The notes under the pieces: model-generated
The model's input: the letters and a program-made list of their open reading frames with translations, nothing else
Told to the model about the DNA's origin: nothing
The model's database searches: none
Part shown: positions 7,758 to 24,341 of the stretch, piece after piece
Layout of the letters: each line of letters starts with the position of its first letter
How positions within the stretch are numbered: position 1 is the stretch's first letter
Program-made: the position numbers and the translations under genes
NCBI GenBank assembly: GCA_934130595.1
Contig: CAKOYF010000001.1
Span: 68,290 to 132,289 of the forward strand
DNA length: 64,000 bases
Reading direction: 5' to 3'
From: an uncultured Clostridia bacterium
GTDB taxonomy: Bacteria > Bacillota > Clostridia > TANB77 > CAG-465

Positions 7758-10532
7758 TTATTGTATATCGTCGGCAGCTCTTGCATCAATATCATAAAGT
7801 ATAACTGTTCCTTTTACAAAATCATATAATTGTTGTGAATCAATTATCCATATTCCTTTTTCAAGTTGTATTCTTAAACTTGAATCTTTATTTACTTCTT
7901 GACCAGGATTTGAAAATCCTAAATATCCTTCATAATCCCACTGTGTTGTATTTACTGCTGAGCTTGCTGATTTATTAAGTGTATTGTATGATATTGTTTC
8001 ATTTAGTTTTGAATCATAACATGTAATCTCAAATTTTACACCAATATATCCATCTGTTAATGCATTTTGAATACTATCACCATTTTTTACAGCTATTGTA
8101 GTATTTGGTAGTTTAAATTCTCCAAACCATGTTTGAATGTAACCAGTATCATCTAGTGCCATCATATTATCTTTTAAGTAAAATTCACCTGAACTATTAC
8201 CAATATTTAAAGATTCTAATTTTTTAGATAAATATGATGTATTTGAAGCATATAGATCATTAGTATATCTACTTCCGTCATCTGGAGTAAAATATATATT
8301 ATATCCGCTTCCAACAAACTTTTTATATTTATCTGTTTCATCTTTATAATATAATGTTATATCTTTAATAACCTGAGAACCATCCTTAGATAAATAGTAA
8401 TACGTTGGTTTTATCTTTATTTTTCTAGCTTCTACACCACTATTACTTGGCATATAATATCCACTTGTTTTTACATCAAAGGAAAATCTATATCCAAGTT
8501 TTGGAGCATTTATATATCCTGCTGTAGTATGTTTATATGGACCTAATGGTAATGTTCTAGTTGAAGTTGTTCCGTTTATTTTTAAATTATTTCTATCTAC
8601 TAATGCTGTATATTCTTTATTTGCATTTGTATATATGTACATTCTTCTAATTCCAGAATAATATCCAGAGTTCTTATCTAAAACATTGGTATCTGATTGT
8701 CTAAATGCACTCTTATATGCTAAATCTGAGCAATCTGATATTTTAAAATCATATATTTTAGATGCTGTTCTTACTGCTATTGTTTTCATTGCAAAATAGT
8801 ATCCATCACCATACATCTTCACTCCTCTTGTGTAGTTTGAGTCTGTATGTGATTCAGAAAACTCAATATCGTTTGAAAAATTAGCAGTATTATCTCCACT
8901 ATCTGTTATATATTTTCTTGATGTAGCATCTTGTGTTTTATCCATCTGAATAGCTACTTCTTGATCTACCACATTATATAGCAATTCATCTGATGGCATA
9001 TTAGAAGCAGAAGCAAGTATTACTATTTTATGATTAGAAGAATCTCTAGATAATGTTTCATTAGGTGCTACTTGTCCTCTAAAATATGTATATCCATCAT
9101 TATATTTTGCTTGGTTAGTCATTCTTATTGCTGTACCTTTAGTATATGTTTTTCCATTATGTACAACATCAAAATCAAAAATCAAATAATAGTAGTTAAC
9201 AAATGCAGCTTTTTGATTTGCAGTTATATTATTGTAATATGTAAAATCTAAATCTCCACAGCTAAGCTTTATTTCAAAGTTTGCATCATCTGCAAGTATT
9301 ACAGTTGATGAATTTACAACAGAATGATCAATTGTTGAGTTACTTGTAGTTGTAATTTGTGGATCATTTAATTTTACAGGAGTATATACATTTATATAAT
9401 GTTCATTAGTTGATTCATATTCTCTTGTTCCACCATATTCACCATTTAAAACATTATATTCTTGATATATAACATTTCCTTTAGCACTTCTTAATCCATT
9501 TAATACATTTGATTGTATTATAATGTTTGCTAAGAAGTCATCTGCTCCTGCATCATCCCCATCTGTTTTATCTATATCATTTTTTCCAGGGATAACTGTA
9601 GTCTTTTTATCATTATAATTGCTAACTAATCCATTTAATATATCTGTTATACTATCTTTATTATTTATAAATATTGGAGATGTGCTTCCAATTCCTGTTA
9701 TAGCTGCTGCAGGATCAGTATTATCTACCAATTTTCCTGTTATTTCTATTTGACCATTAGTACCTTTATGTACTGATTCAGAAGATTTTAAGTATGCTTC
9801 ATTAAGTCTATACACTACAAAGTTACTAACTTTATAGCTTACCTTACCGTCTTCCATAACCTTTTCGTATGATAAATCTTTTATAACATATTTAGGTGTT
9901 TTAAAATATGGTTTTAAAGATCCACCAGCTGGTATATATGTAACATTAGATTGTAATCCTGCATCGTTTCCATTCCAAACGTTAGTATTACTATATAGCT
10001 TTGGAGATATGTTGTCTACAACATCTTCATTATAATAAAAATCTATTATTGTTACATCATTATTGTTAGACTGTATTGTTGTATATTGAGCATTTGCTTG
10101 ACTATTATTATATTCAACATCTAATTGTGATGTACCCGCTCTTACTGATGCTTTTTTTTGCTCCATTACTGAATATGCATCATCTAAGCTTGGCATAGTA
10201 CATATGTTATATCCCAAATAACTATATTTTTTACCATCAACTTGCATAACAAGTGTTTTAGTAATTTCCATAGTTGCTGAGACTGAATAATTATAATATT
10301 CACTATATGATATTTCAGCATCATCTGATGTAGAATTATTTAATAGTGTACTTTTTCCAGAAGACTCTTTTACTTCTTGAGTATTATTTTGCAATCCATT
10401 TATTATTTCACCATTTGCCTTATTTATATGTCTTACAAAAACTTCTCTACCATTTTCATATGCGTATATTTTAGGTGCTAATATAATGTTAAAAGCAATA
10501 AGCAAGAAGATTAATATTACTTTTTTATTCAT
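7758..10532 (-). CDS. Large secreted protein, 924 aa, Sec signal peptide, no LPXTG. Last gene of the pilus-like operon; candidate tip adhesin or secreted cargo.
   Basis: ATG with an AAGGAGGA RBS. Signal peptide MNKKVILIFLLIAFNIILAPKIYA. Translationally coupled to the upstream gene (stop at 10534). Confidence 0.5.
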   Translation of the reverse strand: MNKKVILIFLLIAFNIILAPKIYAYENGREVFVRHINKANGEIINGLQNNTQEVKESSGKSTLLNNSTSDDAEISYSEYYNYSVSATMEITKTLVMQVDGKKYSYLGYNICTMPSLDDAYSVMEQKKASVRAGTSQLDVEYNNSQANAQYTTIQSNNNDVTIIDFYYNEDVVDNISPKLYSNTNVWNGNDAGLQSNVTYIPAGGSLKPYFKTPKYVIKDLSYEKVMEDGKVSYKVSNFVVYRLNEAYLKSSESVHKGTNGQIEITGKLVDNTDPAAAITGIGSTSPIFINNKDSITDILNGLVSNYNDKKTTVIPGKNDIDKTDGDDAGADDFLANIIIQSNVLNGLRSAKGNVIYQEYNVLNGEYGGTREYESTNEHYINVYTPVKLNDPQITTTSNSTIDHSVVNSSTVILADDANFEIKLSCGDLDFTYYNNITANQKAAFVNYYYLIFDFDVVHNGKTYTKGTAIRMTNQAKYNDGYTYFRGQVAPNETLSRDSSNHKIVILASASNMPSDELLYNVVDQEVAIQMDKTQDATSRKYITDSGDNTANFSNDIEFSESHTDSNYTRGVKMYGDGYYFAMKTIAVRTASKIYDFKISDCSDLAYKSAFRQSDTNVLDKNSGYYSGIRRMYIYTNANKEYTALVDRNNLKINGTTSTRTLPLGPYKHTTAGYINAPKLGYRFSFDVKTSGYYMPSNSGVEARKIKIKPTYYYLSKDGSQVIKDITLYYKDETDKYKKFVGSGYNIYFTPDDGSRYTNDLYASNTSYLSKKLESLNIGNSSGEFYLKDNMMALDDTGYIQTWFGEFKLPNTTIAVKNGDSIQNALTDGYIGVKFEITCYDSKLNETISYNTLNKSASSAVNTTQWDYEGYLGFSNPGQEVNKDSSLRIQLEKGIWIIDSQQLYDFVKGTVILYDIDARAADDIQ

Positions 10533-10533
10533 A

Positions 10534-11856
10534 CTATTCCTCCTTACTAACTATACTACTACTTGTTTTTACTGTCATAGAATTAATAGGTAATTCTTTT
10601 ACAAATAGTGTTTGTGATGTTTCGTTTTTATTCATTACTGTATCTATATAAATTGTTATTTGATTGCTATTATAACTTACTTTTGCTCCAGACAAATCAT
10701 AAAGTAGAATATTGTCTTTTGTATCTGATGATTCAATTACTATTTCAAGCTTTGTTCTTACTCTATAATTTTCGCCATCAAAATATACACAAGGCATTTG
10801 AACTGTTGCTTTTCCATTTAGTTTTATATGATTTTGCTTAACATATTCAACATATTCATCTATCATATCTTCATCTAATTGCTCTAATACATATTTTTTT
10901 AGTTTTCTTTTTACTTGTTCTTTGGTTATTGTATTATAATCTACTGTTAAAATATAATTATAATAATTTTCGACATAACTTTTTATTTGACTATAATATT
11001 GTTTGTTATTAGGATAATACTCTATTGGAGATATAAACTTTTCATTATTTTCATTTTTAAGCTCTAATTCATATACATCTTTTTGAACACTTGCTAATGT
11101 ATATGGGTACATATCTGCATTAGTAGGTATTTTTTCTGAATTAATATTTATTTTTGAATTTCCTACTGTTATTGTATTGTATTTTTCAGCAAAATTTACT
11201 ATTAATTCATTTAATTTACCTTTATATAATTTTCTTTTTCCATCAATTCTTTTAGTGTTTACTTCTATTACTCCCGAATTTAACAAATCATAAATTGCTA
11301 GTTGTTGATCTGTGTTATATGCATTTATATCTTTTACATCATAATTTGCTGAAGTATCTGGTTCTATATCTAATATTTTAGCTTTAATGTTATATAACCA
11401 AACTAATACTTCTTGATATTTAACTTTTTCGTCTGCATTAGAAGCGTTAACTTCTTCTCTTGTTACAATTCCTTGTTTTATTGCATATTCTACCCATATT
11501 GCATTTGAGTATGTTTCCTGAGTTGGAAGTGCAATTCCATCTATAGTAGGAACATTGTATAAGCATGATAAAATCATTTTAATTGCTTCAGATTTTGTAA
11601 CTTTATCTTTTGTATTGGCATCCCCATCATTATATACTTGTGAAAAGCCATATATATCCATCTTTTGTTCGTATTTTTTATACTTATTATAATTTATATT
11701 AGCTAAGGTGTAACCTAAATATATCATTACAGCTATAATTATTGCTAGAATAACAGATATTATTGTTACAACAATTCTATGTTTTTTATTACTCTCTTTA
11801 ACTTTTTTCTGTTGTTCTTCTTGATTTTTGTATGACGGAACAAACCCTTCCTCCAT
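10534..11856 (-). CDS. Membrane-anchored extracytoplasmic protein, 440 aa (single TM near residues 28-50).
   Basis: ATG with an AGGAGG RBS. Lies inside the operon. Confidence 0.5.
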   Translation of the reverse strand: MEEGFVPSYKNQEEQQKKVKESNKKHRIVVTIISVILAIIIAVMIYLGYTLANINYNKYKKYEQKMDIYGFSQVYNDGDANTKDKVTKSEAIKMILSCLYNVPTIDGIALPTQETYSNAIWVEYAIKQGIVTREEVNASNADEKVKYQEVLVWLYNIKAKILDIEPDTSANYDVKDINAYNTDQQLAIYDLLNSGVIEVNTKRIDGKRKLYKGKLNELIVNFAEKYNTITVGNSKININSEKIPTNADMYPYTLASVQKDVYELELKNENNEKFISPIEYYPNNKQYYSQIKSYVENYYNYILTVDYNTITKEQVKRKLKKYVLEQLDEDMIDEYVEYVKQNHIKLNGKATVQMPCVYFDGENYRVRTKLEIVIESSDTKDNILLYDLSGAKVSYNSNQITIYIDTVMNKNETSQTLFVKELPINSMTVKTSSSIVSKEE

Positions 11857-11888
11857 TTAGATCACACCTCCTCTTTTTTTATTATACA

Positions 11889-13067
11889 CTATGGATTACA
11901 AATTGGACAAGGATAAAATCCTGTAAATGTTGTCTTAACACCATTTAGCGTACCTGTTGTTACAGATGTAGCCGCTTCTTGTCTAGATGTAACATATCTA
12001 GGTGACATATTCTTTATCTCACTTAGTTTATATTCTGGACAATTTATATCCTTATGATAAAGATTCATTTTTATTTGTGAATCTTTATTCGGTACTGTAA
12101 AGTAATATCTAGTTTTATTTTCTAATGTAGCTGTTCCAAAAGCTTTCGTATTTAGATATTTATTACCTACAGAAATACCTTGTACAAAAGCAATTATTCC
12201 TACACCATCTACCATGTTATATAGTTCATCTTCTGTTGTTGCTGGAAAAGAAAAAGAATATACCACTCCAGCTTGTCTAGCATATAGATTATTTTCATTA
12301 ACAGCATAAGACATCTCATTAGATACTACTTCTGCTATTATTGATGACCTTGTATCTTTCAAATGTGTTACTATTTGTGATTTTAAACTTTGTTTTACCT
12401 CACTATCTACAACACCTGCTACTAATTCATCATTATTATTTGAATCTCCTAAATAAAAACTTTGAGCTTCTATATCTTCATCATATAAGTAATTGTATCC
12501 TCTATGTGTTACTCTATCGTCCATAGTAAACTCAATAGTATGAATTGATACAACATTAGAAGTTTCTGTACCAGGTACCATCTTATACTCTCCATTTGAT
12601 CTTACAATTGAATATGTATATGTAAAATATCTTTTAGGTTTTAAAACTCTTTGAACTGAACTTGTACCATCACTAGCATTTACTGTTTCGTTTTTAGATA
12701 CTCGTACACCATCATATTCAACTACGGCAACAGCAGGAACAAAAAGGTTAAAATATGATTCTGCTGTTTCATTACCTTCTATTCCTAATGTATTATACAT
12801 AGCATTAAAGAAAGAATCTACTCCAACTTTTGCATTTACGTTTATCTTTTTATTGTTTGAATCTGAATATCCATAGTCTATGCTCTTATCTTGGCTTTCT
12901 ACTTGTTTCATTTCATATGCTGCATCTTCTAGAGCTGAATCTATAACTCTTTGATAATACATTTCCATTTCTTCAGCTTTTATTGTAAATGTAACATTGA
13001 TATATAACACTAACATAAACGGTAATATTATTGCTATAAAAACTAAAGCAAAATCTGTTATTTTCAC
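11889..13067 (-). CDS. Membrane-anchored extracytoplasmic protein, 392 aa, N-terminal TM.
   Basis: GTG start with an AGGAGGTG RBS. N-terminal hydrophobic segment ALVFIAIILPFMLVLYI. Confidence 0.5.
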   Translation of the reverse strand: MKITDFALVFIAIILPFMLVLYINVTFTIKAEEMEMYYQRVIDSALEDAAYEMKQVESQDKSIDYGYSDSNNKKINVNAKVGVDSFFNAMYNTLGIEGNETAESYFNLFVPAVAVVEYDGVRVSKNETVNASDGTSSVQRVLKPKRYFTYTYSIVRSNGEYKMVPGTETSNVVSIHTIEFTMDDRVTHRGYNYLYDEDIEAQSFYLGDSNNNDELVAGVVDSEVKQSLKSQIVTHLKDTRSSIIAEVVSNEMSYAVNENNLYARQAGVVYSFSFPATTEDELYNMVDGVGIIAFVQGISVGNKYLNTKAFGTATLENKTRYYFTVPNKDSQIKMNLYHKDINCPEYKLSEIKNMSPRYVTSRQEAATSVTTGTLNGVKTTFTGFYPCPICNP

Positions 13068-13078
13068 CTTTTCACCTC

Positions 13079-14083
13079 CTATATCTCTGGTATAGTAATT
13101 GAACTATTTATTTTTATTACTATTTCTTGTGAACTTGCACTTGCATTTTTAGAGAATTTTCCTTGAATAACATTAGCTGGTAAGAAACATTTAAAATTAT
13201 TGTATTCATTATTTAAGAAATATGTCTTACTCTTAGTGTCATCTAATGTAAATTTAACTATATATTCTCCCTCACCACTTTCTTCAATTGAAGAAGGAGA
13301 TACAAAGCAATTAGGTGCTGTTCCCACAAGTCTTATATTATCTCTTATTTTTCCTACAAGATTTGTATCGTCTGCATTTAATATTTGAACTTTGAATGTT
13401 AAAATTCTATCTTTAGCAACATCAAAACTATATTCTGGATTTCCATTTACATTTGGCTCATTTCCATCTTGTAAATTTATTTTAATCAATATATCACTTT
13501 GATATAATTGGCTTATTTCTGTGTTTTCCCAGTTGTTATTTTTAATAGTTGCTCCATAAGTAATGTTTATTTTTTCCTTACTTGCTCCTCCTACTATAAC
13601 ATTTAATAATGAAGAAGCCATTGTTGTATTAGTATTTTTTACTGTAACATAAAACTTATCTCCTACATCAAGGAAAAAAATATCATTTTTCAAACTATTG
13701 TCTTTGTCTATTATATTACTTGTTTTTCCAGTCTCATCATTAAAAATATCCTTGTTATAATATGATTTATACTGTTCTACATAAGTTTCATTTCCTTCAT
13801 CTGGATTAGTATTTGAAGGATCTACTGTTAATACTTTCTTTTTAGCCTCAACTTGAATATCATATGAGTTTCCAGTTGTACCAAGTCTTTGTATAAATTT
13901 ATCATACATATCTTGGTCTATATAACCATTTTGCGCTACTTCATCTACAAACATTGTAACTGTTTTTAAAGTTAAGTTATATGACATATCATCTTGTCTT
14001 TCAAAATAGTTATATAAAGGAAGAAGTACTAATAATATTACTAAAAATATTACAGCCACAATCATACTAAGTGTATCCTTCAT
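13079..14083 (-). CDS. Large pilin-like (pseudopilin) protein, 334 aa; paralogue of 14992..16563.
   Basis: ATG with an AAGGAGGA RBS. N-terminal hydrophobic helix IVAVIFLVILLVLLPLY, then the shared motif ..DDMSYNLTLK...NGYI..DMYDKFIQRL..T.NSYD seen in 14992..16563. Confidence 0.5.
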   Translation of the reverse strand: MKDTLSMIVAVIFLVILLVLLPLYNYFERQDDMSYNLTLKTVTMFVDEVAQNGYIDQDMYDKFIQRLGTTGNSYDIQVEAKKKVLTVDPSNTNPDEGNETYVEQYKSYYNKDIFNDETGKTSNIIDKDNSLKNDIFFLDVGDKFYVTVKNTNTTMASSLLNVIVGGASKEKINITYGATIKNNNWENTEISQLYQSDILIKINLQDGNEPNVNGNPEYSFDVAKDRILTFKVQILNADDTNLVGKIRDNIRLVGTAPNCFVSPSSIEESGEGEYIVKFTLDDTKSKTYFLNNEYNNFKCFLPANVIQGKFSKNASASSQEIVIKINSSITIPEI

Positions 14084-14098
14084 TTTATTCCTCCTTTT

Positions 14099-14563
14099 TT
14101 ACCACTGCTCTTCAAGTTCTTCATCTGTAGCTTTTATTATATTTATATAAGTTGTATTTTCATTAGTGCTCTTATCTACAGTAAGTATATATTTATTATT
14201 CATACCAATCTTATTTATTGCCTCTTTATATGTTAAAGTTTTGCTATCTAACATAAGTGGTGTTTCATTTTTTGTTGATAAATTAATATTTACCACAACA
14301 TCATTATTAACAGTATCGTCTGAATATCTGTCTTTTTTTATATAATTATAATAATACGATAAAACTTCTTGTCCTGTTAAAATCAAGTGCCTATTTACTT
14401 CTCCTGTTACAGTTACTGCATCATTAGATTGCTGATGCATGTAATCATAAGCTTCATCTGTATAATTCATCAGCGATGAAAATAAGAAAATAGTTAAAGA
14501 TAAAGCTATAACAAAAATCATAGTATATATACCAATGTAAATAGCCTCATTTGCATTTTCCAT
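14099..14563 (-). CDS. Small pilin-like protein, 154 aa, class-III-like signal peptide.
   Basis: ATG with an AGGAGGTG RBS. N-terminus MENANEA|IYIGIYTMIFVIALSL. Confidence 0.5.
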   Translation of the reverse strand: MENANEAIYIGIYTMIFVIALSLTIFLFSSLMNYTDEAYDYMHQQSNDAVTVTGEVNRHLILTGQEVLSYYYNYIKKDRYSDDTVNNDVVVNINLSTKNETPLMLDSKTLTYKEAINKIGMNNKYILTVDKSTNENTTYINIIKATDEELEEQW

Positions 14564-14574
14564 ATTTTCACCTC

Positions 14575-14979
14575 CTATATTTTAGTAAAACTAATTTTTG
14601 TTTTCATTAATCCATCATATTCAACTTCTTCAACTTTTGATTTATATTTGTCTTCATATTTTAAAATGCCATTATTATATTGGTCATTTAGATAATTTAT
14701 TCCATTTTCATCATTAACGCTAAATCCATTGTATTCAACTACAACTAAATTTTCTTTGTAATATTTATTTGCACAATTTATTACATCTAGTCCTGTAACC
14801 TCTGTGTTATCATAAGAAGCATACTTTCCAAATCTAGCTGTTATAGATGTGTCTGTTGAGTTTACTTGTTTATATACTCCTTTCATTTGGGAAAATATAA
14901 ACATTATTCCTGAAATTATAATAACTGTTACAAATATTCCAACGCCAAACATTAATGCTCTATTTGCTGATTCTCCCAA
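14575..14979 (-). CDS. Small pilin-like protein, 134 aa, class-III-like signal peptide.
   Basis: TTG start with an AGGAGGA RBS. N-terminus MGESANRA|LMFGVGIFVTVIIISG. Confidence 0.5.
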   Translation of the reverse strand: MGESANRALMFGVGIFVTVIIISGIMFIFSQMKGVYKQVNSTDTSITARFGKYASYDNTEVTGLDVINCANKYYKENLVVVEYNGFSVNDENGINYLNDQYNNGILKYEDKYKSKVEEVEYDGLMKTKISFTKI

Positions 14980-14991
14980 ATGTTTTTCCTC

Positions 14992-16563
14992 CTATTCTAT
15001 TCCATATCTTTGTTGATCTATTTTAAAGTTTTCTTTTATTTCTTCTTCTGTTAAAGCTCTATCGTATATTCTTACACAATATATAGTTCCTTTAAATTGA
15101 GTATTAGCACCAGCGCCTGCAAGTGGACTTCCACCAATTACTAAGTTAGTGCCTGTTGCAGCATTTACCATTTCAGTATTAAATGGTATACCATCAACAT
15201 TACCATTAATTCCTAATAATTGTGCACTAGTTTCATATGCAAATTTATCTCCACCTAAAGTTAAGTCCATCTTTCCTACAGATCCAGCTATTGAATATAT
15301 TTTATTAGCTTGCATTATTGTACCATCTGAAACAACTGAAGATAAATTATTTCCTGTTTTATTTGTATAAACATCAAAAGATATTTTTCCTCTTTTTGAG
15401 ACACTTGTAGAATTTAATTGGTTAAATACTATTCCAGCGCCTCCATTATTTAAGCAACTTACTATAGATTGTTCTGAAGTGTCAGGATCTGTTACACTAT
15501 CTAACTTCATTACAACTTCTATAGTCATCTCTGAGAAATTAAATTCTTTTAATGATACATACTCTTTTCCTGTAAAATGTAATCCATTGTATATCCATCC
15601 AGATTCATCATTAAAATCAAAACCAGATAATGTGGCATTATTTCCATTACCACTAAGATCTTTCCAAATATTAGCTGAATTTGAATGAACTGTTCCATCA
15701 TTATACTCACCATTTAATAGAACAACAAGTCCGTTTGTAATATATGAGTTAACTAAAGAACTTGTATTTTCAGAACCTGGTGTATTAGTGCTTTCGTTAT
15801 AGTTTTGGTTATCATCATTTACAGTCTTGTCTCTATATGTTTCAGCTTTTACAGTACCTCCGTAATTTACATATATTCTAGTATTATTTTGACTTGATGC
15901 TCCAAAAGTAATTAAATTATATATTACACTTGCCATAGTTGTATTTTTATTTTTTACTATTACGCTAAACTCGTCGCCTTCATTCATTGTATATACTTGA
16001 GTGTTACTTTCTGGCATATATATACTTGTAATTGCAGGTAAATTTCTAAAATCAATACCTTTATATACATCTAGTGATGTTTTTACAGTAAGAGTTCTAT
16101 CTGTTGAACTAATTACATCTAATATTTGCTTCTCATTATATTTTTTTTCAGATAAGTCATAAGCTAGTACTAAATTATTATATGTTCCTGCATTTACTCC
16201 TTCATTTACAACAATTTGGTTATTTTCATATTGTTCTTTATATAAATTATAATCAAATTTTGCTCTAATTGTAGATAAGTCATCTGTATATGAATATATA
16301 ACAGGATTATATTTTTTTGCTGTATGCTCCATATATACATCATAACTATTTTGAGTTACTGCTAGTTTTTTTATAAAATCACTGTACATTTCTGATGTTA
16401 TATAGCCTTTAGCATTAACATTATCAACAAAATCAGTTGTTATTTTTAGTGCTAAGGCATAAGATATATCATCTTTTTTTTCATAAGCTATATATACTGG
16501 CAATATAAAAAGTATAACAACAGCTATTAGTACTGAAACTACTTTTTGTAAAATTCCATCCAT
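14992..16563 (-). CDS. Large pilin-like protein, 523 aa, with a C-terminal LamG/concanavalin-like jelly-roll domain. Candidate lectin-type minor pilin or tip adhesin.
   Basis: ATG with an AAGAGGGG RBS. N-terminal helix VVSVLIAVVILFILPVY. The C-terminal half resembles a LamG-like domain (..WKDLSGNGNNATL.GF.F....W..NGL.F.G..YV...). Confidence 0.5.
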   Translation of the reverse strand: MDGILQKVVSVLIAVVILFILPVYIAYEKKDDISYALALKITTDFVDNVNAKGYITSEMYSDFIKKLAVTQNSYDVYMEHTAKKYNPVIYSYTDDLSTIRAKFDYNLYKEQYENNQIVVNEGVNAGTYNNLVLAYDLSEKKYNEKQILDVISSTDRTLTVKTSLDVYKGIDFRNLPAITSIYMPESNTQVYTMNEGDEFSVIVKNKNTTMASVIYNLITFGASSQNNTRIYVNYGGTVKAETYRDKTVNDDNQNYNESTNTPGSENTSSLVNSYITNGLVVLLNGEYNDGTVHSNSANIWKDLSGNGNNATLSGFDFNDESGWIYNGLHFTGKEYVSLKEFNFSEMTIEVVMKLDSVTDPDTSEQSIVSCLNNGGAGIVFNQLNSTSVSKRGKISFDVYTNKTGNNLSSVVSDGTIMQANKIYSIAGSVGKMDLTLGGDKFAYETSAQLLGINGNVDGIPFNTEMVNAATGTNLVIGGSPLAGAGANTQFKGTIYCVRIYDRALTEEEIKENFKIDQQRYGIE

Positions 16564-16564: not shown

Positions 16565-17032
16565 TTATACCCCTCTTATTGTTATTACTTTAGATCCTAA
16601 ATCAGTATCTACATCTTCTACGCTAATTGTAAAATCCTGATTATCCATAATATATCTCAAAGCTCTATTATATGAGCTTTCTCTAATGTTCATTTCTTTT
16701 GAATCCATTACAACTGAATCTAATATTTGAATATTTCCATTTTTATCTAAATACTTAATATTATATGCATTAACGCTAACATTAACGTTATCCTCATAAT
16801 AATTAAAAAGATTAATTACACTAGTTCCTTTAATGTAATTTCCAGTATTACTCATAAGAAGAGTAGATTCAATATCATGTCTATAGATATTTCCAAAGTT
16901 TTTACCTGAACCAGCATTTTTTACTATATTTAAACTTGAATTAAAAAATATTATAATTGCTGATACAGTCATAACTCCAACTAATGTTGTAACACCTATC
17001 ATTATTGCTTTTGATAGATTGTCCTCATCCAT
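16565..17032 (-). CDS. Small pilin-like protein, 155 aa, class-III-like signal peptide.
   Basis: ATG with a GAAAGGAGGAG RBS. N-terminus MDEDNLSKA|IMIGVTTLVGVMTVSAIIIF. Confidence 0.5.
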   Translation of the reverse strand: MDEDNLSKAIMIGVTTLVGVMTVSAIIIFFNSSLNIVKNAGSGKNFGNIYRHDIESTLLMSNTGNYIKGTSVINLFNYYEDNVNVSVNAYNIKYLDKNGNIQILDSVVMDSKEMNIRESSYNRALRYIMDNQDFTISVEDVDTDLGSKVITIRGV

Positions 17033-17117
17033 TCTACTCTCCTCCTTTCGTTATATAAACATATGTTAAAGCATATATTTTGATACACTCTAAAATATGT
17101 CTATATATAATGTTCAA

Positions 17118-17143
17118 GGTATATAACTAAAAAATTATATACC
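17118..17143 (-). terminator. Intergenic stem-loop (9 bp stem) directly downstream of the first pilin gene. Possible partial terminator or attenuator.
   Basis: GGTATATAA-ctaaaaaa-TTATATACC. No clean U-tract. Confidence 0.3.
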
Positions 17144-17171
17144 CTGAAATTATTCATAATTTATATATCTT

Positions 17172-17660
17172 TTATTTTTCTCTAGTAAATAATATTCCTA
17201 ATACAACGTCTCCACTTGTGCTTTTAATAAGTTGTGCTTTATATCTGGCAGAAGCTGGTACATATGTAGAAGTGTTAGAGCTATCAGATAAAGTACTTAC
17301 TTTAGCTTGTGCATGACTTGAATCATAGCTTAAAGCTTTGTCTATTGAAACTGTTCCGTTTCCTCTAACTTTTCCTAGTTCAAGTATATCTCCACCAACA
17401 ATTGGTTGAACTTCAAGGATCATACTTTGATCTGTATTATATAATTGAACTGTAGAAACAACTTTTGCTCCTGTAACTACAACATCATCATATTCTTGTG
17501 TTAGTTGTTGTTGTAGTGCATCAGATAAATTTGTAACTTTGTTTGTTGCATTGTTAATTAAGTTTATAGCTGGATTAACTATTAACATTACAGCAGCTAT
17601 AATTAAAATTGTTACAAATAATCCAACACCTATCATTATTGCTTTTTGTGCATTATCCAT
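17172..17660 (-). CDS. Pilin-like protein, 162 aa, class-III-like signal peptide. First pilin gene after the platform gene, so a candidate major subunit.
   Basis: ATG with an AAGGAGGAATATAA RBS. N-terminus MDNAQKA|IMIGVGLFVTILIIAAVMLIV, archaellin-like (compare A.GIGTLIVFIA). Confidence 0.55.
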   Translation of the reverse strand: MDNAQKAIMIGVGLFVTILIIAAVMLIVNPAINLINNATNKVTNLSDALQQQLTQEYDDVVVTGAKVVSTVQLYNTDQSMILEVQPIVGGDILELGKVRGNGTVSIDKALSYDSSHAQAKVSTLSDSSNTSTYVPASARYKAQLIKSTSGDVVLGILFTREK

Positions 17661-17715
17661 TTATATTCCTCCTTTACACAATTATATTAAAACATCTTCT
17701 TTCAGATGGTTTAAA

Positions 17716-19770
17716 CTAAAACGCCATTTGACTAAAATAATTTAACATTTGTAGTATACTTACTATTAATAGTGGTGCTACTAAATATCCACCTATTAGC
17801 AAGACCATAGGAGTAAATCCTAAAACCTGTCCTATAGAAGCTTTTCTTTTAACTAGATTTTCATTTGCATCTTTTCTCTTTTCATAGAAAAATGCTCTTT
17901 CTGTTTCTAACTCATCAAAAGCTGCTTTTACAGGTATTCTTGTTACAGCAGATTCCAATTGTTCAATTATTCTCTGGAAATCTTTGTTTGGAACTGAATC
18001 TTTTAGCTCTTCAAGTGCTTCTTCAGCTCCTGCTTCATAGTTATTTAAGCATGTTGCTATTGGTTCTCTAAATGCGTATGAGAATCTACATAGCCACTCT
18101 AATATTGTCTGTACATCTACTCTATCAATGTGCATAAGCATTAAAATTATTGACTGAAATTGCATTATTTCATTTTCTTTATCCATTTTTCTTACACTAT
18201 TTTTTATAGTTAAGATTAAATTTGGTATATGATATGCTATCACTGCAACACCTAATGCTATTAAAACATGCCAAAACTTAATATATGAATCATTTATTGT
18301 TGTTATTTTATCATAAATTCTATCTACAGCATCAGTATCAACAGTTCCTGTAGATTTATCTGTTAGACTTTCAGCTAATTCTTCTTTAGATACATTTTTA
18401 TTCTTGTATTTTTGAATATATCCTAAGTCAAATTTTGCTATTTCATCTGCTGCAGCTTGATCTTCTGTACTTAGTTTTCCAAGAGATAAGAACTCATTAC
18501 TTAGTTTTGTATAAGCTGCATTTTTAGTTATAATATTCATATTTAATATTAAAAATATTGTAAGTACAAAACCTATAAGTGCATAAGTTAATTTATTTAC
18601 ATATAGCCACTCTATGGTTAAATATGAATTTGTATCTTTTATTAAATTAACTTCTTTTTTATATTTAGCTGTATGTTGCCTTGTTTTAAAAGCATCTACA
18701 ATGGTTCTTACAAAATTTATTTTATATAATTTTTCTTGCCATTTTACTTTTGAAACTCTATCAAATTTTATTTCTTCTCCATCTTCTCTTAAAACTCTAA
18801 GTAAGATGTATGACATAAATATTGATATTATAATTAATGATTGCATCACAAATCCTATACTACTACTATAAAAATTCGATAGTGCAGCAAAGTTATTTGT
18901 AGCCCATGATTCAATAGGTTTAATAAATATAAGTGGTATAACAGCTATTACTGTTAAACTTCTAAAAGTATTTTTTAATTTGTCTTGTTTTAATATTTCA
19001 AGATATATTTCATTTAATATATTATTTAGATTTTTTAGGTAGATAGATGTATCTTCTATTTTTCTATCACCTAATTCATATGTTAAAAATGAAATTCCTG
19101 CAAATAATTTTAAGAATCTATTTGGAGCAGTATCATAATATCTTTCAAGCTCAACTTCTGGCTGATCAGATATTATTGCTTCTCTTATTCTTTTTAGTTG
19201 TGGAGCAATTTCTTTCTCACTCATTTCATCTATAGTATCAGATAATGCTTCATCAACCATTCCATGCTCATGAAAAGCATGTCTTAGTGTAGTAAACGCT
19301 TCTGGCATCTGTCTTAATATTTTATTTGAAACAGATGTAATTGTTATATCTGTAACTTTTTCTACGACAATAATAAGTCCTATCATTATTATTAATGTCA
19401 TATATAAATCATTTACTACATTTACAAATATTGCTAAAGCCACAAACATAACAATCAACGTCAAAGTCATTAGTCTACCTGTATTTCTTCTAAGTTCATA
19501 CTCAGAATAATCATTTGACATTTCATATTTTAGTCTTATTTTTTTAGCATAATATTTGATTAACGGCATTTTTACAAAAGTCATATACATTACTTGGTAT
19601 AATTTATCAAAAGTCTCTTTAAAATTAACTTTATTTTTTACAACTAATGTATCTTTTGCTTGTAAAATTGAATTGTTACTATACCTTCTTTTTAATACAG
19701 CATAATAAATTAACAAACTTGCAAGGCCAATTACAGATACAACAACTAATGCAATTGCTATATTTGTCAC
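17716..19770 (-). CDS. Inner-membrane platform protein of the GspF/TadB-TadC family, 684 aa. Fused two-domain architecture, as in archaeal TadC/FlaJ.
   Basis: GTG start with a GGAGGTG RBS, 5 nt after the ATPase stop. About 7-8 predicted TM helices arranged as two blocks, each followed by a large cytoplasmic domain. Confidence 0.6.
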   Translation of the reverse strand: MTNIAIALVVVSVIGLASLLIYYAVLKRRYSNNSILQAKDTLVVKNKVNFKETFDKLYQVMYMTFVKMPLIKYYAKKIRLKYEMSNDYSEYELRRNTGRLMTLTLIVMFVALAIFVNVVNDLYMTLIIMIGLIIVVEKVTDITITSVSNKILRQMPEAFTTLRHAFHEHGMVDEALSDTIDEMSEKEIAPQLKRIREAIISDQPEVELERYYDTAPNRFLKLFAGISFLTYELGDRKIEDTSIYLKNLNNILNEIYLEILKQDKLKNTFRSLTVIAVIPLIFIKPIESWATNNFAALSNFYSSSIGFVMQSLIIISIFMSYILLRVLREDGEEIKFDRVSKVKWQEKLYKINFVRTIVDAFKTRQHTAKYKKEVNLIKDTNSYLTIEWLYVNKLTYALIGFVLTIFLILNMNIITKNAAYTKLSNEFLSLGKLSTEDQAAADEIAKFDLGYIQKYKNKNVSKEELAESLTDKSTGTVDTDAVDRIYDKITTINDSYIKFWHVLIALGVAVIAYHIPNLILTIKNSVRKMDKENEIMQFQSIILMLMHIDRVDVQTILEWLCRFSYAFREPIATCLNNYEAGAEEALEELKDSVPNKDFQRIIEQLESAVTRIPVKAAFDELETERAFFYEKRKDANENLVKRKASIGQVLGFTPMVLLIGGYLVAPLLIVSILQMLNYFSQMAF

Positions 19771-19774
19771 TTTA

Positions 19775-21673
19775 TCACCTCCAAGCCATATCTAAGAATT
19801 CATCAAAAGCTTTTATATCTTCTGCAGACATATTATCTCTCATTGCTTTAATGTTTTCTTCGCTAATAGGATTTTTAAATACATATTTTCCATCAACAAA
19901 TTCTACGATGTTTCTATATGTATAGTTTTTACTTTGTGTCATATGTTGAAAATATTCAACAGCATTATCCATAAACTTGTCTAGTTTTTGATTTACATCT
20001 TTTACTTTTCTATAATCATTATTATATGTATATGTTTGCTCTAATGGAATACATTCTGTTATTCTTTCAATGTATCTAGTACCATCTACAGCTCTTTTTA
20101 AATGTATATCAAAGTTTATAACTTGAACAACCTGTACTTCTGCAACTTGTTCAGAATTGAACATTCCAATTTTTAATAATGAGTTTCTAAGTGATGTTAT
20201 TAAGTTTGGAAATGTCTTTGCATGGTGTGTAAATAATGTAAATTTAGATGCAACCTGTGCCATCTGAATCATCCAAGCAGCAACTGGATCAGTTGCAACC
20301 TCTCCTAATATGTTTACACCACCATCTGTTTTCTTTTGAACATCTAGTCCTTCTTGTCCTGTTATAGTATCTGTTTCTCTTAAAGATAAGATGTTATGAT
20401 ATGGATAAATTTTTCTTAAGTGTAATTCGAATGCAGTTTCCTGTACACGAATTGTTATTGTTGGATATAAGAATTTCATTATAGCCATCAATAATGTAGT
20501 TTTACCACAACCCTGCTCACCAGTTATTGCAGTAACTCTGGCTCCTCTAATTAAATATTTTAATAACTCTACAACATTTTCTTTATTTTCATGAACAAGT
20601 AATTGTTCAGGTGAAATTAATGTAGGTGGAGCAAATTTTCTAACAAAAAAAGCCCAAGATTCAGAGAAGTTTGGTCTAAGAACAACAACTCTGGAACCAT
20701 CTTTCATTTCATTTATTTTATAACCAACAGACTCAGATAACTGTCCTGGGTTATTATATTTGTATATGTTTTGACATACTCTTTTTAACTCTGCTTCACT
20801 ACCAAAAGATAAGAAAGATAAATATGTAGCTTTACCTTTATAGAATATCCATACAGAATCATATGACATTGGTATTTTAGCTTCATTCATTTGTGTTAAG
20901 TAATCATCAATATCACTTAACTGATCTAGGAATGATGGTGGAATACCTGATACACCACCTGATACACCATCAATATTCATATCTCTTATATCATCTACGA
21001 CGCTATATCCTTTATATTCTTGGTATATTCTTTGTACTACTATCTCTAGCTTGTCTTCAAATGAAAGTGTTTCAGTTGAAACTTCATTTGTAAATATATC
21101 ATCAATCTCTTTTGCTGTAATTACATATGAAGGTACTGTAGCATCAAATTCATATTTTGGATAATCTAGAGCGTACTTTGTTATTATCTTTGTTAAAGCT
21201 TCTGCTTTATATGTTTTCTTGTAAATATGCATTAATATTTCAAATTTATCTTGTGATGTTAATTCATTAAAGTTATTAAATGGAATTGCATAGTTAATAT
21301 TAAAGTTATTTACTTTATAATCATTCTTTAGCAAATCAAACATTAATGATTTTACATACTTTTTATCATTTGAATCAGCATATCCGGCACCTTTTAAAGC
21401 TCTCTTTAATTCATATTTAACATTTTTTCTTCTTTCAAATTCTTCTTCAGATAATGCTAAATCATACAAATTCATTCTAGTAATTTCATCAAATTGCTTT
21501 TTTATATAATTTTGCATAGTAGAAAGACTATATGTTGTCTTTTCTCTTGTTAAACTATCTTCTACCATTTGGTCTGCACCAGATTTTTTTACTTTGTAAT
21601 AGAAAAACGCTGCTACAAATGCTAATAAAAGAAGTATTAACAAAATATTAAATACAAATGCAACTGACATCAT
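19775..21673 (-). CDS. Secretion/pilus ATPase of the TadA/CpaF/FlaI type (VirB11 superfamily), 632 aa, with an N-terminal TM anchor.
   Basis: Walker A GEQGCGKTT, Walker B and a His-box (THHAKT). No tetracysteine zinc motif, so not a GspE/PilB type. N-terminal helix VAFVFNILLILLLLAFVAAFFYY. Confidence 0.7.
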   Translation of the reverse strand: MMSVAFVFNILLILLLLAFVAAFFYYKVKKSGADQMVEDSLTREKTTYSLSTMQNYIKKQFDEITRMNLYDLALSEEEFERRKNVKYELKRALKGAGYADSNDKKYVKSLMFDLLKNDYKVNNFNINYAIPFNNFNELTSQDKFEILMHIYKKTYKAEALTKIITKYALDYPKYEFDATVPSYVITAKEIDDIFTNEVSTETLSFEDKLEIVVQRIYQEYKGYSVVDDIRDMNIDGVSGGVSGIPPSFLDQLSDIDDYLTQMNEAKIPMSYDSVWIFYKGKATYLSFLSFGSEAELKRVCQNIYKYNNPGQLSESVGYKINEMKDGSRVVVLRPNFSESWAFFVRKFAPPTLISPEQLLVHENKENVVELLKYLIRGARVTAITGEQGCGKTTLLMAIMKFLYPTITIRVQETAFELHLRKIYPYHNILSLRETDTITGQEGLDVQKKTDGGVNILGEVATDPVAAWMIQMAQVASKFTLFTHHAKTFPNLITSLRNSLLKIGMFNSEQVAEVQVVQVINFDIHLKRAVDGTRYIERITECIPLEQTYTYNNDYRKVKDVNQKLDKFMDNAVEYFQHMTQSKNYTYRNIVEFVDGKYVFKNPISEENIKAMRDNMSAEDIKAFDEFLDMAWR

Positions 21674-21683
21674 ATCACCCCTC

Positions 21684-22496
21684 TTACTCTTTTATTTTTA
21701 ATATTTTTACTATTTCCTCTACTATTTCTGTTGCCCTTAGCATAAACTCACCATTATAATCTTTTGCTGGAGCGTTTATATTTCTGTATAAAAAGTCTAA
21801 GACATTACCATCATTACATGCATCTGTAAATAAATAGTTATGTGGAAGTACGTAACATGGTTCTGGAATTTTGTACTTTAATTTAACATTAAAAATATTA
21901 TACTTAGATCCAGACTCATAATCTCCTAAAACAAATATTTTTTGTTTATCTTTTAAGCTATCTATACTATTAAGTTTCTTTAATACGTTATTCAATTTTT
22001 CTATTTCCTGAGGAATTACACACACTATAATGTCTGACTGTTCCATTACTCTTATTGCACTATCATCAGTAGTAGTCTTAGGTAAGTCTATAAACACTAA
22101 GTCATATACTTCATCTGCATTTTTAGCAATTAGTGGCATGCTAATTAAATTTTCTCTTTTTTCTGTTGTTGTATTAGCTATGGCACTATAAAGTATATCT
22201 AATCTTCCTTTTAATACAGGCTTTGAATAGTTTTGAATTATGTCCGGTGACAATTTATTACTCTTAATTAAACGCATTATTGCATTCATACCAAGATTAG
22301 TATCATTAAAACTATTTGCATTTACTAAATCATCATACATAGTAAATGATGAAGCTATTTTTTTAGCATTTGAATTTGCATCTATTAAAAGAGAAGATGT
22401 TTTATGTGTTATTCCCATTAGAGAACTAATAGCAATAGCAGTATGTGTACATCCACTTTTTCCCTCTTCTGGACTCCAAAATACAATCTTTGCCAT
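21684..22496 (-). CDS. ParA/MinD-family ATPase, TadZ/CpaE-like, 270 aa.
   Basis: N-terminal P-loop-like SPEEGKSGCT and Walker-B-like DLVFIDLP. RBS AGGAGGAG. Confidence 0.5.
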   Translation of the reverse strand: MAKIVFWSPEEGKSGCTHTAIAISSLMGITHKTSSLLIDANSNAKKIASSFTMYDDLVNANSFNDTNLGMNAIMRLIKSNKLSPDIIQNYSKPVLKGRLDILYSAIANTTTEKRENLISMPLIAKNADEVYDLVFIDLPKTTTDDSAIRVMEQSDIIVCVIPQEIEKLNNVLKKLNSIDSLKDKQKIFVLGDYESGSKYNIFNVKLKYKIPEPCYVLPHNYLFTDACNDGNVLDFLYRNINAPAKDYNGEFMLRATEIVEEIVKILKIKE

Positions 22497-23204
22497 TTAA
22501 TTTCTCCTCCTTTTTATTTCTTTTAATACTTCTTTAGAAGAAACATCTCCTAATATTCTAGAAATATACTCACATAAGTACAATATATATGTTTTTGTAT
22601 GTTTTCTTAAATCTATAAGTCCACTGAATTGTGAATCTATATTAACCATCATATCTTGTTCATCAGTACTAATATCATAAACCTCATCTGTCCACTTAAC
22701 TGCATAATTATTTATTTTTTCTTCTAAATAATTTGTTGCTGCTCTAGATAAGTATGCTCTATATAAAATCTTTGAAAATACTAATTCTTTATCTGGATTT
22801 TCTTCTCTCATTTTATGTACAAGTTCATCATTTTTTGTTACTGATATAACATTAGTATCTATATACATATATGATTTATCTACTTGTAAATCTTTAAATT
22901 TAGCGTACGTATTTGCATCCTCTATATCTATTAAGACATAATTATATAATTTAAGATCTATATTCTTTTCACTTAAATATTTTTCTAATGAATCGTATGA
23001 ATCAAACCCAACTGCAAAGTCTATATCCGCATATCTAGTTACATATTCTGAGCTATTATCTATAGTTGGTACTATACATTTATATTTTTTATCTGATGTA
23101 GCATCAATTACTAATACAGATTTTCCCATAATATTTAAAGCTCTAGCTGTTGCAATTACAAAGTCATATTTATCTACATATCCATACATTCCAATTACTT
23201 GCAT
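22497..23204 (-). CDS. ParA/MinD-fold protein with a degenerate P-loop (likely pseudo-ATPase), 235 aa.
   Basis: N-terminus VIGMYGYVDKYDFVIATARALNIMGKSVLVIDAT aligns to ParA-family architecture but lacks the GKT/S lysine. Confidence 0.4.
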   Translation of the reverse strand: MQVIGMYGYVDKYDFVIATARALNIMGKSVLVIDATSDKKYKCIVPTIDNSSEYVTRYADIDFAVGFDSYDSLEKYLSEKNIDLKLYNYVLIDIEDANTYAKFKDLQVDKSYMYIDTNVISVTKNDELVHKMREENPDKELVFSKILYRAYLSRAATNYLEEKINNYAVKWTDEVYDISTDEQDMMVNIDSQFSGLIDLRKHTKTYILYLCEYISRILGDVSSKEVLKEIKRRRN

Positions 23205-23219
23205 TTAAACTACCTCCTA

Positions 23220-24251
23220 CTATTTTCCTTCTAATAAGTTTTCTCTTTCAGTTTGTTGCATAATAATAGATTGTTGTGCTCCTGTAACTACATTTTCGTA
23301 ATCATCACTATTTTGTGATTTGTAGTTTTTGATTCCACTTTCTATTGTAGATCTTGACTCAGCATTTAATCTTGAAAGCTCAGTACTTGCATTTTTTAGT
23401 AAATATTGGTTTGATTTCATAGCACTCATAACATAAGTATTTGGTTGATAGTTTTGTGTTGTTTTTGTTGAAGCATTTGCAAAGTTTTTATATTTATATA
23501 TATAATCATATAATTTAGTTGCTGCTTCAGTTACATCCATCTTTTTAAGTTCATCCCAGTCTTTTTCAATAACTGTTTCAAGATATCCTTTTGTTTCACT
23601 TTCAATATCTGAAGATGTTTTAACTTGAGCATCACTATCTGTATATCTTAAAGCATATAATTTAGATCCACTGTTTAAGAAAGAATCAACTACTGCACTG
23701 TTTAATAGTTGGATTTCATCCTCAGATAATTTCATCCAGAAAGTTGTGTCATATATTTTATCTATGTTCTTTTGTGCAAGAACTATGTAATCTGTTCCAT
23801 TAGGATACATTATTCTAATATCTACAGTATCTCCCTCAACAAGATCACTAGGCATAAGAACTGTATTTATTTCAACGTCTCTTACATCAGCAGCTACAAC
23901 TTCATCACTTACCATATCTCCTGTAATAGGCACTTTTGCAGCTATATTATATTTTGCACTTAGTCCAACAACACTTCCTGAAGATACAACTCCTGTTGGT
24001 ACTGTATGATTGTTTACATTTACAGTTTCAATCATATCTGCAGTTATAATTTCTCCTTGTACAACGTTTCTTTTTAAAACAACTACTGGTGTAGTATAGT
24101 TTTTAATATAATTTTTGTTTGTTCCATCTTTATATGATTTTATAGTAAAGAAAGAAAATACACTTACACCAACGGCTACAACGATTCCAACACTAGCTCC
24201 AATCAATATACCTTGTATTGTTTTCTTTTTAATTTGACTCATTCCTATCAT
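23220..24251 (-). CDS. CpaB/RcpC-like pilus assembly protein (N-terminal TM plus SAF domain), 343 aa. First gene of the operon.
   Basis: TM helix ILIGASVGIVVAVGVSVFSFF followed by a SAF-like segment (VVVLKRNVVQGEIITADMIETVNV). RBS GGAGG. Confidence 0.5.
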   Translation of the reverse strand: MIGMSQIKKKTIQGILIGASVGIVVAVGVSVFSFFTIKSYKDGTNKNYIKNYTTPVVVLKRNVVQGEIITADMIETVNVNNHTVPTGVVSSGSVVGLSAKYNIAAKVPITGDMVSDEVVAADVRDVEINTVLMPSDLVEGDTVDIRIMYPNGTDYIVLAQKNIDKIYDTTFWMKLSEDEIQLLNSAVVDSFLNSGSKLYALRYTDSDAQVKTSSDIESETKGYLETVIEKDWDELKKMDVTEAATKLYDYIYKYKNFANASTKTTQNYQPNTYVMSAMKSNQYLLKNASTELSRLNAESRSTIESGIKNYKSQNSDDYENVVTGAQQSIIMQQTERENLLEGK

Positions 24252-24312
24252 TTGTTATCAACCTCCATAAACCAATCAAATTACTTATTTTTTCGGTTAT
24301 ACTTCTTAATTT

Positions 24313-24341
24313 AGTATATCTCTAAAAGCATAAAAAATCAA
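24313..24341 (-). promoter_or_regulatory. SigmaA-type promoter of the pilus-like operon (TTGATT-17-TATACT).
   Basis: Minus strand: -35 at 24336..24341, -10 at 24313..24318, with an AT-rich UP-like region upstream. Confidence 0.45.

Follow-up and report, generated by a model that had tools for sequence, protein, structure and literature searches.

What kind of machine is encoded by the 14 co-directional genes (g01 to g14) that lie between a dacF-like gene and a group of sporulation genes on contig CAKOYF010000001.1 of an uncultured Clostridia bacterium? A stretch of 64,000 nucleotides (nt) of this contig, hereafter the window, was analyzed, and window positions are counted from its first letter. 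The first-pass annotation had proposed a filament system of mixed Tad and archaeal character, nearer to archaella than to bacterial Tad loci and conceivably associated with spores. The evidence assembled here indicates that the operon probably encodes a very divergent, Tad-derived (type IVc-like) filament machine for the single-membrane, thick-walled cell of TANB77 Clostridia. Because Kim et al. 2024 (Nat Commun 15:10726; PMC11680825) already describe the cluster, the operon is a re-discovery and a confirmation. The existence of the cluster and its Tad-like nature are published, and our analysis adds no new system; its modest additions are the homologues on plasmids, the lack of a linked peptidase for pilin maturation, and an archaeal-style leader on a bacterial Tad motor.

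The gene organization was as first described. All 14 open reading frames (ORFs) are present on the minus strand between positions 7758 and 24251, a GGAGG-type ribosome-binding site precedes each of the 14, and 10 of the 13 intergenic gaps measure 0 to 15 nt (15, 0, 10, 4, 55, 139, 1, 12, 11, 15, 11, 32, and 1 nt from g01 to g14). A terminator-like stem-loop with a T-run just downstream of the dacF-like upstream gene, read by eye from the sequence, bounds the set on one side, and its own strong terminator bounds it on the other (Table 1). The 14 genes are confirmed as a real operon. A 9-sequence alignment was used to retrieve 80 related loci (L001 to L080; 1.7 Mb), and g01 to g05 are strictly syntenic in 80 of 80. 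ATPase identity across these loci is 60 to 97%; the pilin genes are only ∼70% identical even in the closest relatives and vary in number, and their faster divergence, as read from the sequences, fits the pattern of surface-exposed subunits.

The motor protein places the machine. A profile of the g04 ATPase family, built from 47 cluster representatives, matched the Protein Data Bank (PDB) entry for CpaF at an E value of 3e-27 (98 bits), FlaI at 1.6e-14 (56 bits), and archaeal GspE at 1.6e-11 (46.5 bits), with weaker matches to VirB11, PilT, GspE, and PilB (1e-7 to 1e-8 for GspE/PilB). As a single sequence, g04 matched CpaF at 1e-8 over the N2 and C-terminal domains, and its Walker A motif reads GEQGCGKTT. 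Since CpaF outscores FlaI, we place the motor within the Tad/archaeal clade, where it falls with the bacterial Tad systems. The description of the ATPase as FlaI-like, and of the whole machine as closer to archaella than to Tad systems, is therefore not upheld, and no ArlH, ArlX, or ArlCDE-type genes were recognized in the operon. Nor does the ATPase group with GspE, given the distance between the CpaF match (3e-27) and those to GspE/PilB. The family is well separated: an exhaustive search returned 338 cluster representatives at E < 1e-30 and 1178 at E < 1e-3. Curated models recognized g04 below threshold (Pfam T2SSE, 19.0 bits against a cutoff of 24.9; TIGR03819, far under its cutoff). The N-terminal transmembrane (TM) helix appears to be family-wide, because most representatives align from about residue 5 to 10.

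The remaining components are recognizable mainly at the level of fold. In Pfam and NCBIfam scans of the 14 proteins, only SAF (g01) and Laminin_G_3 (g08) exceeded their cutoffs, and g05 and every pilin-like protein other than g08 lacked a match; the original domain calls were mostly right, but they are weak at the sequence level. The SAF domain of g01 scored 34.2 bits (E 3.7e-8, cutoff 21), and TIGR03177 pilus_cpaB matched at E 8.9e-6, under its cutoff. The g02 family profile matched MinD (4v02) at E 2.2e-4, with Pfam CbiA at E 0.11, and the P-loop is absent in all family members. For g03, TIGR03815 CpaE_hom_Actino matched at E 0.004, and the family profile matched the ParA-family protein 3ea0 at E 0.018. 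The g03 Walker A motif is kept as GKEQTGKT in some clades, and in the window it is degenerate, with Cys in place of Lys, so that the call of a TadZ-like ParA ATPase for the third gene stands at the fold level but not for the catalytic lysine. Among the g03 homologues of the 80 related loci, this lysine is replaced by Cys, Gln, or Asn in the lineage of the window and in many others, a pattern that suggests repeated loss of ATPase activity in a scaffold protein. Because the P-loop lysine is missing from both ParA-like proteins of the window, g02 and g03 are more likely scaffolds than enzymes here.

The PilC-type domain of g05 is visible at the fold level only. No T2SSF match was found at E ≤ 1 in a Pfam scan of 15 diverse g05 homologues, a sequence search of the PDB with g05 gave no matches, and alignment of its N-terminal half to its C-terminal half with hhalign was weak (E 0.017 over 44 columns). 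By position and topology, g05 is read as a fused platform of the TadC/TadB type, and its platform function is inferred. The single protein in the platform position, probably a fused platform, and an ATPase without the tetracysteine motif, both pointed out at the outset, are real features. The zinc-binding cysteines are also normally absent in CpaF/TadA.

An independent annotation by structure comparison supports the Tad-derived assignment. Kim et al. describe a "TANB77 pilus cluster" of 10 to 14 genes as conserved in 122 of 129 TANB77 species, annotated by eggNOG, topology, and Foldseek in genome HRGM_Genome_2725 (CAG-245 sp000435175, proteins 927 to 938), and call it exclusive to TANB77 among gut genomes (PMC11680825). 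Gene order, lengths, and TM topology correspond to those in the window, which makes the window operon a member of that cluster. The counterparts of g01 to g05 and g12 are listed in Table 1; the published cluster likewise has two COG1192 ParA-like proteins (928 and 929), and its proteins 932 to 937 are single-TM-helix pilin-like proteins of 143 to 237 residues, against 134 to 523 residues for g06 to g11 (PMC11680825). The window has 14 genes, adding g08 with its laminin G-like domain, the 440-residue bitopic g13, and the 924-residue secreted g14. Recombinant "pilin 938" was reported to activate dendritic cells via TLR4 and to improve the anti-PD-1 response in mice (PMC11680825). The accessible portions of that paper make no mention of a prepilin peptidase, an operon, a leader motif, P-loop loss, or plasmid homologues. 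The claim that no obvious equivalent is known from Clostridia is thus not sustained, because this cluster is published and Tad systems in Clostridia were already listed by Denise et al. 2019 (PMC6668835).

The related loci agree with this placement. One of them, L030, reproduces the published layout almost exactly. The GC content of the window is ∼28%, and the nearest genomes are low-GC metagenome-assembled genomes of uncultured gut Clostridia, including Clostridium sp. CAG:1219 and Candidatus Merdicola, the latter of GTDB order TANB77, family CAG-508 (PMC13106387).

The putative filament subunits are pilin-like but distinct from Flp pilins. The AlphaFold2 model of g06 (predicted local distance difference test score, 83.8) consists of a helix at residues 3 to 57 (55 residues) followed by a beta domain; the long N-terminal helix and beta domain are pilin-like in architecture, and a search of solved structures with g06 gave no significant match. 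The N terminus of g06, MDNAQKA/IMIGVGLF, is nearly invariant among the nearest relatives, a protein identical to g06 was found on 489 contigs, and g07 homologues are present in the related loci. The 117 distinct N termini in the 80 loci share a strongly conserved leader with the consensus M-[ED]-N-A-[SQ]-[KR]-A, after which come [LI]-x-[IM]-[AG] and a hydrophobic helix. Of the 117, 81 have a leader of 7 residues; Lys or Arg occupies position −2 in 90% and Ala position −1 in 94%, the search pattern itself having required [KRE][AGS]. Glu at +5 and the Flp motif (G/xxxxEY) are both absent, positions +4 to +6 being A/G/V rather than E-Y. Of the archaellin-like N termini first proposed, the [KR]-A before the hydrophobic stretch does resemble archaeal class III signals, but no Pfam Class_IIIsignal or Pilin_N match was obtained. 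A leader ending in [KR]-A suggests, by its sequence, that the pilins are cut by a class III (prepilin) peptidase whose gene lies in another part of the genome.

The major-pilin gene is present in two or three tandem copies in L005 (13147-14130), L006 (14040-15479), L010 (4092-5659), and L030 (15913-16734). The copies are identical in their N-terminal halves and diverge in their C-terminal domains, an arrangement that looks like pilin copy-number and antigenic variation.

Several observations weigh against a Tad-type filament. The small pilins, at 134 to 162 residues with a globular domain, are not of the Flp type and had no Pfam match to Flp_Fap, TadE, N_methyl, or Class_IIIsignal. No prepilin peptidase was found in the 64-kb window, where the TM-rich ORFs scanned were DAGK, SecD, SecF, and SecY; the A24 motif G[GAS][GAS]D.K was absent from an ORF motif scan of the window and the 1.7 Mb of related loci; and the annotation of five plasmid-borne clusters contains no prepilin peptidase. 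As the cluster has no linked peptidase, it does not account for how the pilins mature. In addition, the filament is known here from genes alone, its carrier organisms are uncultured, and the proposed adhesion role derives solely from one lectin domain and analogy. The component set assigned to Tad/Flp pili at first pass therefore holds in outline, with a CpaF/TadA-clade ATPase, a CpaB-like SAF protein, two ParA-like proteins of the TadZ/CpaE kind, a protein in the platform position, and pilin-like proteins, but not for a Flp-type major pilin or for an A24 peptidase (TadV/CpaA) in the locus.

Homologous clusters were also found on large plasmids of cultured Bacillota. A tblastn search against plasmids returned 34 records with full-length ATPases of the family, and the annotated regions of five were compared: pTHECO01 (Thermobacillus composti), pBpOF4-01 (Alkalihalophilus pseudofirmus), pRSJ17_1 (Clostridium argentinense), pBsph (Lysinibacillus sphaericus C3-41), and pINGR16-02E1 (Clostridium botulinum). 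Other carriers are Paenibacillus spp., including Paenibacillus polymyxa. In the retrieved regions, the clusters span 11331-25839 (L081), 11501-24904 (L082), 11467-24060 (L083), 5654-19939 (L084), and about 14293-26345 (L085). The order in the first four plasmids is a SAF protein, two ParA-like proteins, the ATPase, a protein of ∼680 residues, and small proteins, ending in an S-layer homology (SLH) or cell-wall-binding protein and, last, a giant protein, which in three of them carries the DUF5704 annotation. At its two ends the C. botulinum cluster is somewhat different, and GGDEF and HD genes follow some of the plasmid clusters. By blastp, homologues of g01, g03, g04, g05, the g08/g11 family, g12, and the g14 C terminus are present on all three of pTHECO01, pBpOF4-01, and pRSJ17_1, and those of g02 and g06 on two of the three, with identities of 40 to 60% for g04 and 24 to 36% for g05. 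The same leader is found in one or more of the plasmid pilins (MSTNASKA/LYFG). Compared with the window, the plasmid clusters have fewer pilin genes, some lie near transfer genes, and their genes are mostly annotated as hypothetical. Literature searches on DUF5704 and on CpaF-type clusters of conjugative Bacillus plasmids turned up no relevant paper. Judged by sequence homology, the cluster is not confined to TANB77: its full-length homologues occur on plasmids of cultured bacteria.

Just downstream of the C. botulinum cluster and its GGDEF gene lies lepB, encoding signal peptidase I (L085, 28002-28490). No other protease-type candidate for maturation was seen close to a copy of the cluster, and lepB may be unrelated.

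The plasmid copies raise the possibility that the machine is a mating or DNA-transfer apparatus, that is, a conjugation-associated or DNA-uptake pilus, rather than an adhesin. Besides the plasmid location in many cultured Bacillota, the best NCBIfam match of g04, TIGR03819, is named "TadA family conjugal transfer-associated ATPase" (a match at E 1e-5 that is far under its cutoff); the pTHECO01 cluster lies a few kilobases from a type IV coupling protein and a replication-relaxation protein, and that of pRSJ17_1 comes after a C40 peptidase and a large ATP-binding protein. However, the pBsph cluster sits beside replication genes and no transfer genes are annotated there, most of the carrier plasmids have been typed as non-mobilizable, and the GGDEF/HD genes behind plasmid clusters are more typical of the control of adhesion or biofilms. 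In the window itself, the cluster is surrounded by chromosomal genes of housekeeping and sporulation function, none of the genes nearby encodes a relaxase, coupling protein, or VirB4, and no competence-type DNA receptor or channel genes were recognized. We consider a role in DNA transfer unlikely.

The end of the operon bears on a second alternative, in which a short pseudopilus would push g13, g14, or other proteins through the wall in the manner of type II secretion. The large proteins are partly conserved outside the window. A Laminin_G_3 domain occupies residues 332 to 510 of g08 (E 1.6e-11); g08 and g11 are paralogues (E 3e-14), and g11 homologues occur both in TANB77-type loci and on plasmids. 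Homologues of g12 are the final pilin-like gene of L030 (E 3e-8 and 3e-5), which by sequence we take to correspond to protein 938, and plasmid genes (E 5e-36). Kim et al. describe the N-terminal quarter of protein 938 as TadE/PilV-like (PMC11680825); no Pfam TadE match was found among the window proteins, and g08, g11, and g12 have, by eye, a Pro within the N-terminal hydrophobic segment, like TadE. For g13, Pfam and NCBIfam scans gave no family match; it is conserved in the nearer loci (34 to 69% identity) and stands where the plasmid clusters have their SLH or cell-wall-binding proteins. For g14, there was no Pfam match, and its C-terminal third (residues 579 to 923) shares homology with the C-terminal region of the giant plasmid proteins annotated as DUF5704 (E 3e-15).

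By eye, residues ∼85 to 165 of g13 resemble an SLH/cell-wall-binding repeat (…VTKSEAIKMIL…AIWVEYAIKQGIV…), a resemblance that neither models nor BLAST support.

Secretion of this kind would account for the co-transcription of g13 and g14 at the operon end, the conservation of their SLH/cell-wall-binding and DUF5704 counterparts in the plasmid clusters, and the many minor pilin-like genes beside one major one. Against it, the ATPase groups with CpaF and not with GspE, and g14 has an ordinary Sec-type signal peptide, so that no dedicated exporter is needed. The RNA structure after g06 also points to a highly expressed major subunit. The 139-nt gap there folds into two long hairpins that none of 200 shuffled sequences matched in folding, and no U-tract follows them; the structure may act as an attenuator or mRNA stabilizer that raises the ratio of major to minor pilin. 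A secretion machine is distinctly improbable on this evidence.

The position of the operon suggests a third alternative, an appendage associated with sporulation or with spores. The flanks agree with the first description: Peptidase_S11 (dacF-like) lies upstream, and the genes on the downstream side encode SpoIID, an M23 peptidase, SpoIIID, and MreB. A dacF homologue also lies upstream in many, but only part, of the related loci, and a seemingly SpoIVB-type peptidase gene, identified by eye, follows the cluster in L030. The neighborhood nevertheless differs by clade. Upstream of the L030 cluster, which ends within the retrieved flank, are a recombinase and a HAD hydrolase; none of the related loci showed spoIID/spoIIID downstream, although the retrieved flanks rarely pass the end of the cluster; and in other Bacillota the same cluster is located on plasmids next to replication genes. 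In L001 to L004, the nearest relatives, whose ATPases are 95 to 97% identical, ∼4.7 kb (∼2700-7400) separates the dacF-like gene from the first gene, compared with 200 nt in the window.

The promoter argues in the same direction. The single sigma-A-like promoter proposed for the operon is present, but by itself its score of 9/12 is at chance level: 122 sites scoring like it were found, compared with 133 expected from shuffled AT-rich sequence. The same −35/−10 pair with the same spacing lies 39 to 67 nt 5′ of the first gene in 13 of the 15 nearest related loci, where the DNA around it has diverged beyond alignment; in same-size coding segments used as a control, 1 of 72 gave a match. The promoter is credible because the pair and its spacing are conserved amid diverged intergenic DNA. 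Unstable neighbors and a sigma-A-like promoter together argue against a sporulation-specific role, and the suggested sporulation link is not supported; we regard a spore appendage as very unlikely. Least probable of all, and only marginally conceivable, is a rotary archaellum-like motility filament acquired from archaea, since the single fused platform and archaeal-type pilin leader are outweighed by an ATPase clearly nearer to CpaF than to FlaI, by Tad-type accessory genes, and by the absence of recognizable ArlH (KaiC-like), ArlX/CDE, or ArlF/G among the operon proteins. The archaellum, spore appendage, and type II-like secretion readings were rejected on the evidence of the ATPase, the promoter, the neighborhood, and the Sec signal.

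For the Tad-derived filament, the following order of events can be proposed. The sigma-A-type promoter, whose conservation is observed, would drive g01 to g06; the two hairpins after g06 would keep the first-pilin transcript abundant, and g07 to g14 would be expressed by read-through or from internal starts up to the strong terminator. The g01 protein and the lysine-less g02 and g03 may serve as non-enzymatic scaffolds that place or assemble the machine, as TadZ/CpaE do. A hexameric g04, which belongs to the CpaF family, would be tethered by its own N-terminal helix and turn the fused g05 platform, and the platform would lift pilins from the membrane and stack them by their N-terminal helices. 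The pilins, which bear the leader motif, would be cut after its 7 residues by an unlinked class III peptidase. The major subunit would be g06, with g07, g09, g10, and the large g08, g11, and g12 forming a priming or tip complex, and g13 and g14 may be wall- or surface-associated partners. The lectin module of g08 and the large g13 and g14 point to binding of carbohydrates or host surfaces and thus to a likely role in adhesion in the gut, to mucus, host cells, or other microbes.

A broader and more tentative interpretation is possible. A distinct and as yet unnamed subfamily of type IV filament machines, spread across Bacillota, may be represented by the cluster, chromosomal and vertically inherited in TANB77 and plasmid-borne in Bacilli and Clostridium, an offshoot of Tad that partly kept or regained archaeal pilin features. 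It may be defined by a CpaF-like ATPase with a membrane anchor, by a fused platform, by ParA scaffolds that lack the P-loop, and by non-Flp pilins with an archaeal-type leader, and these pilins may be matured by a peptidase other than a linked A24 enzyme or not at all. If such a subfamily exists, it could be studied directly in the cultured plasmid carriers, and the full-length homologues in cultured Lysinibacillus sphaericus C3-41 and Paenibacillus polymyxa provide a route to experiments. TANB77 is an abundant uncultured gut lineage, and how its putative filament is built is of practical interest.

Table 1. Genes and signals of the window operon, with the counterparts published for the TANB77 cluster (PMC11680825); aa, amino acids
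Feature	Position	Strand	Properties	Published counterpart
Sigma-A-type promoter TTGATT-17-TATACT	24313..24341	-	9/12 score plus conservation	
g01, CpaB/RcpC-like bitopic protein (1 TM + SAF)	23220..24251	-	343 aa; TM 14-32	927, CpaB, 358 aa
g02, ParA/MinD-like, without Walker A	22497..23204	-	235 aa	928, TadZ, 231 aa
g03, ParA/CpaE-like, degenerate P-loop EEGKSGCT	21684..22496	-	270 aa	929, CpaE, 280 aa
g04, membrane-anchored CpaF/TadA-family secretion ATPase	19775..21673	-	632 aa; TM 4-22	930, TadA/CpaF, 1 TM helix, 640 aa
g05, polytopic, platform position; read as fused TadC/TadB-like platform	17716..19770	-	684 aa; ~8 TM	931, 8 TM helices, N-terminal half TadC, C-terminal half TadB, 693 aa
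g06, probable major pilin	17172..17660	-	162 aa; first pilin gene of operon	
Double hairpin 3′ of g06	17033..17171	-	minimum free energy -39.6 kcal/mol, z = -8.0	
g07, small pilin-like	16565..17032	-	155 aa; N-terminus MDEDNLSKA/IMIGV + TM segment	
g08, large pilin-like, C-terminal ConA-like lectin domain	14992..16563	-	523 aa; TM 8-26	
g09, small pilin-like	14575..14979	-	134 aa; N-terminus MGESANRA/LMFGVG + TM segment	
g10, small pilin-like	14099..14563	-	154 aa; N-terminus MENANEA/IYIGIY + TM segment	
g11, large pilin-like	13079..14083	-	334 aa; TM 5-23	family of protein 937
g12, large minor-pilin-like, family of "pilin 938"	11889..13067	-	392 aa; N-terminus MKITDFALVFIAIILPF	938, TadE/PilV-like pilin, 621 aa
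g13, bitopic membrane protein, large extracytoplasmic part	10534..11856	-	440 aa; TM 28-46	
g14, secreted protein, Sec-type signal peptide	7758..10532	-	924 aa; hydrophobic 5-23, then ...KIYA/YE	
Intrinsic terminator of operon	7715..7750	-	16-bp stem, then U-tract; minimum free energy -19 kcal/mol, z = -5.6	

Other features of the window were noted in passing. A 535-residue ORF (34651-36258, minus strand) between the YqfD-containing sporulation block and SecDF had no Pfam match at E ≤ 0.001. The lowest GC content (22.7%) is at 26000-28000, a stretch that contains a 128-residue ORF with four TM segments and no family match (26670-27056) and adjoins the only clear plus-strand gene, a GT4 glycosyltransferase (27833-29344). 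Scans of the window for tRNAs and Rfam families were empty.

Among the known type IV filament systems, type IVa pili, Com pseudopili, and type II secretion systems were rejected as a match because there is no tetracysteine motif, N_methyl match, or Glu at +5, and GspE/PilB score far below CpaF. With the archaeal type IV pili and archaellum (Epd, FlaI/FlaJ), the operon shares a single polytopic platform gene, a beta-rich globular domain in the pilin, and a short leader ending in [KR]-[A/G] before a hydrophobic helix that lacks Glu at +5. It differs from them in that FlaI scores 42 bits under CpaF in the ATPase profile, that no ArlH, ArlX, ArlCDE, ArlFG, or FlaK/PibD/EppA was recognized in family scans of the 14 proteins, and that the CpaB- and ParA-like accessory genes are bacterial Tad features. 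From canonical Tad/Flp systems (Aggregatibacter tad, Caulobacter cpa), the operon is set apart by a putative platform consisting of one fused protein, an ATPase with its own membrane anchor and an N-terminal extension of roughly 270 residues, pilins of 130 to 160 residues with a globular domain and without the G/xxxxEY motif, and the lack of a TadV/CpaA peptidase in the locus. It also lacks the secretin, TadD, and pilotin, as expected of a monoderm, and for Tad-type components other than the g01 SAF domain it scores below curated family thresholds. What it has in common with canonical Tad/Flp systems is the ATPase of the CpaF/TadA clade, the SAF protein of the CpaB/RcpC type, the ParA-like TadZ/CpaE proteins, several minor pilin-like proteins, the absence of a retraction ATPase gene, and, at the fold level only, putative platform domains of the TadB/TadC type.

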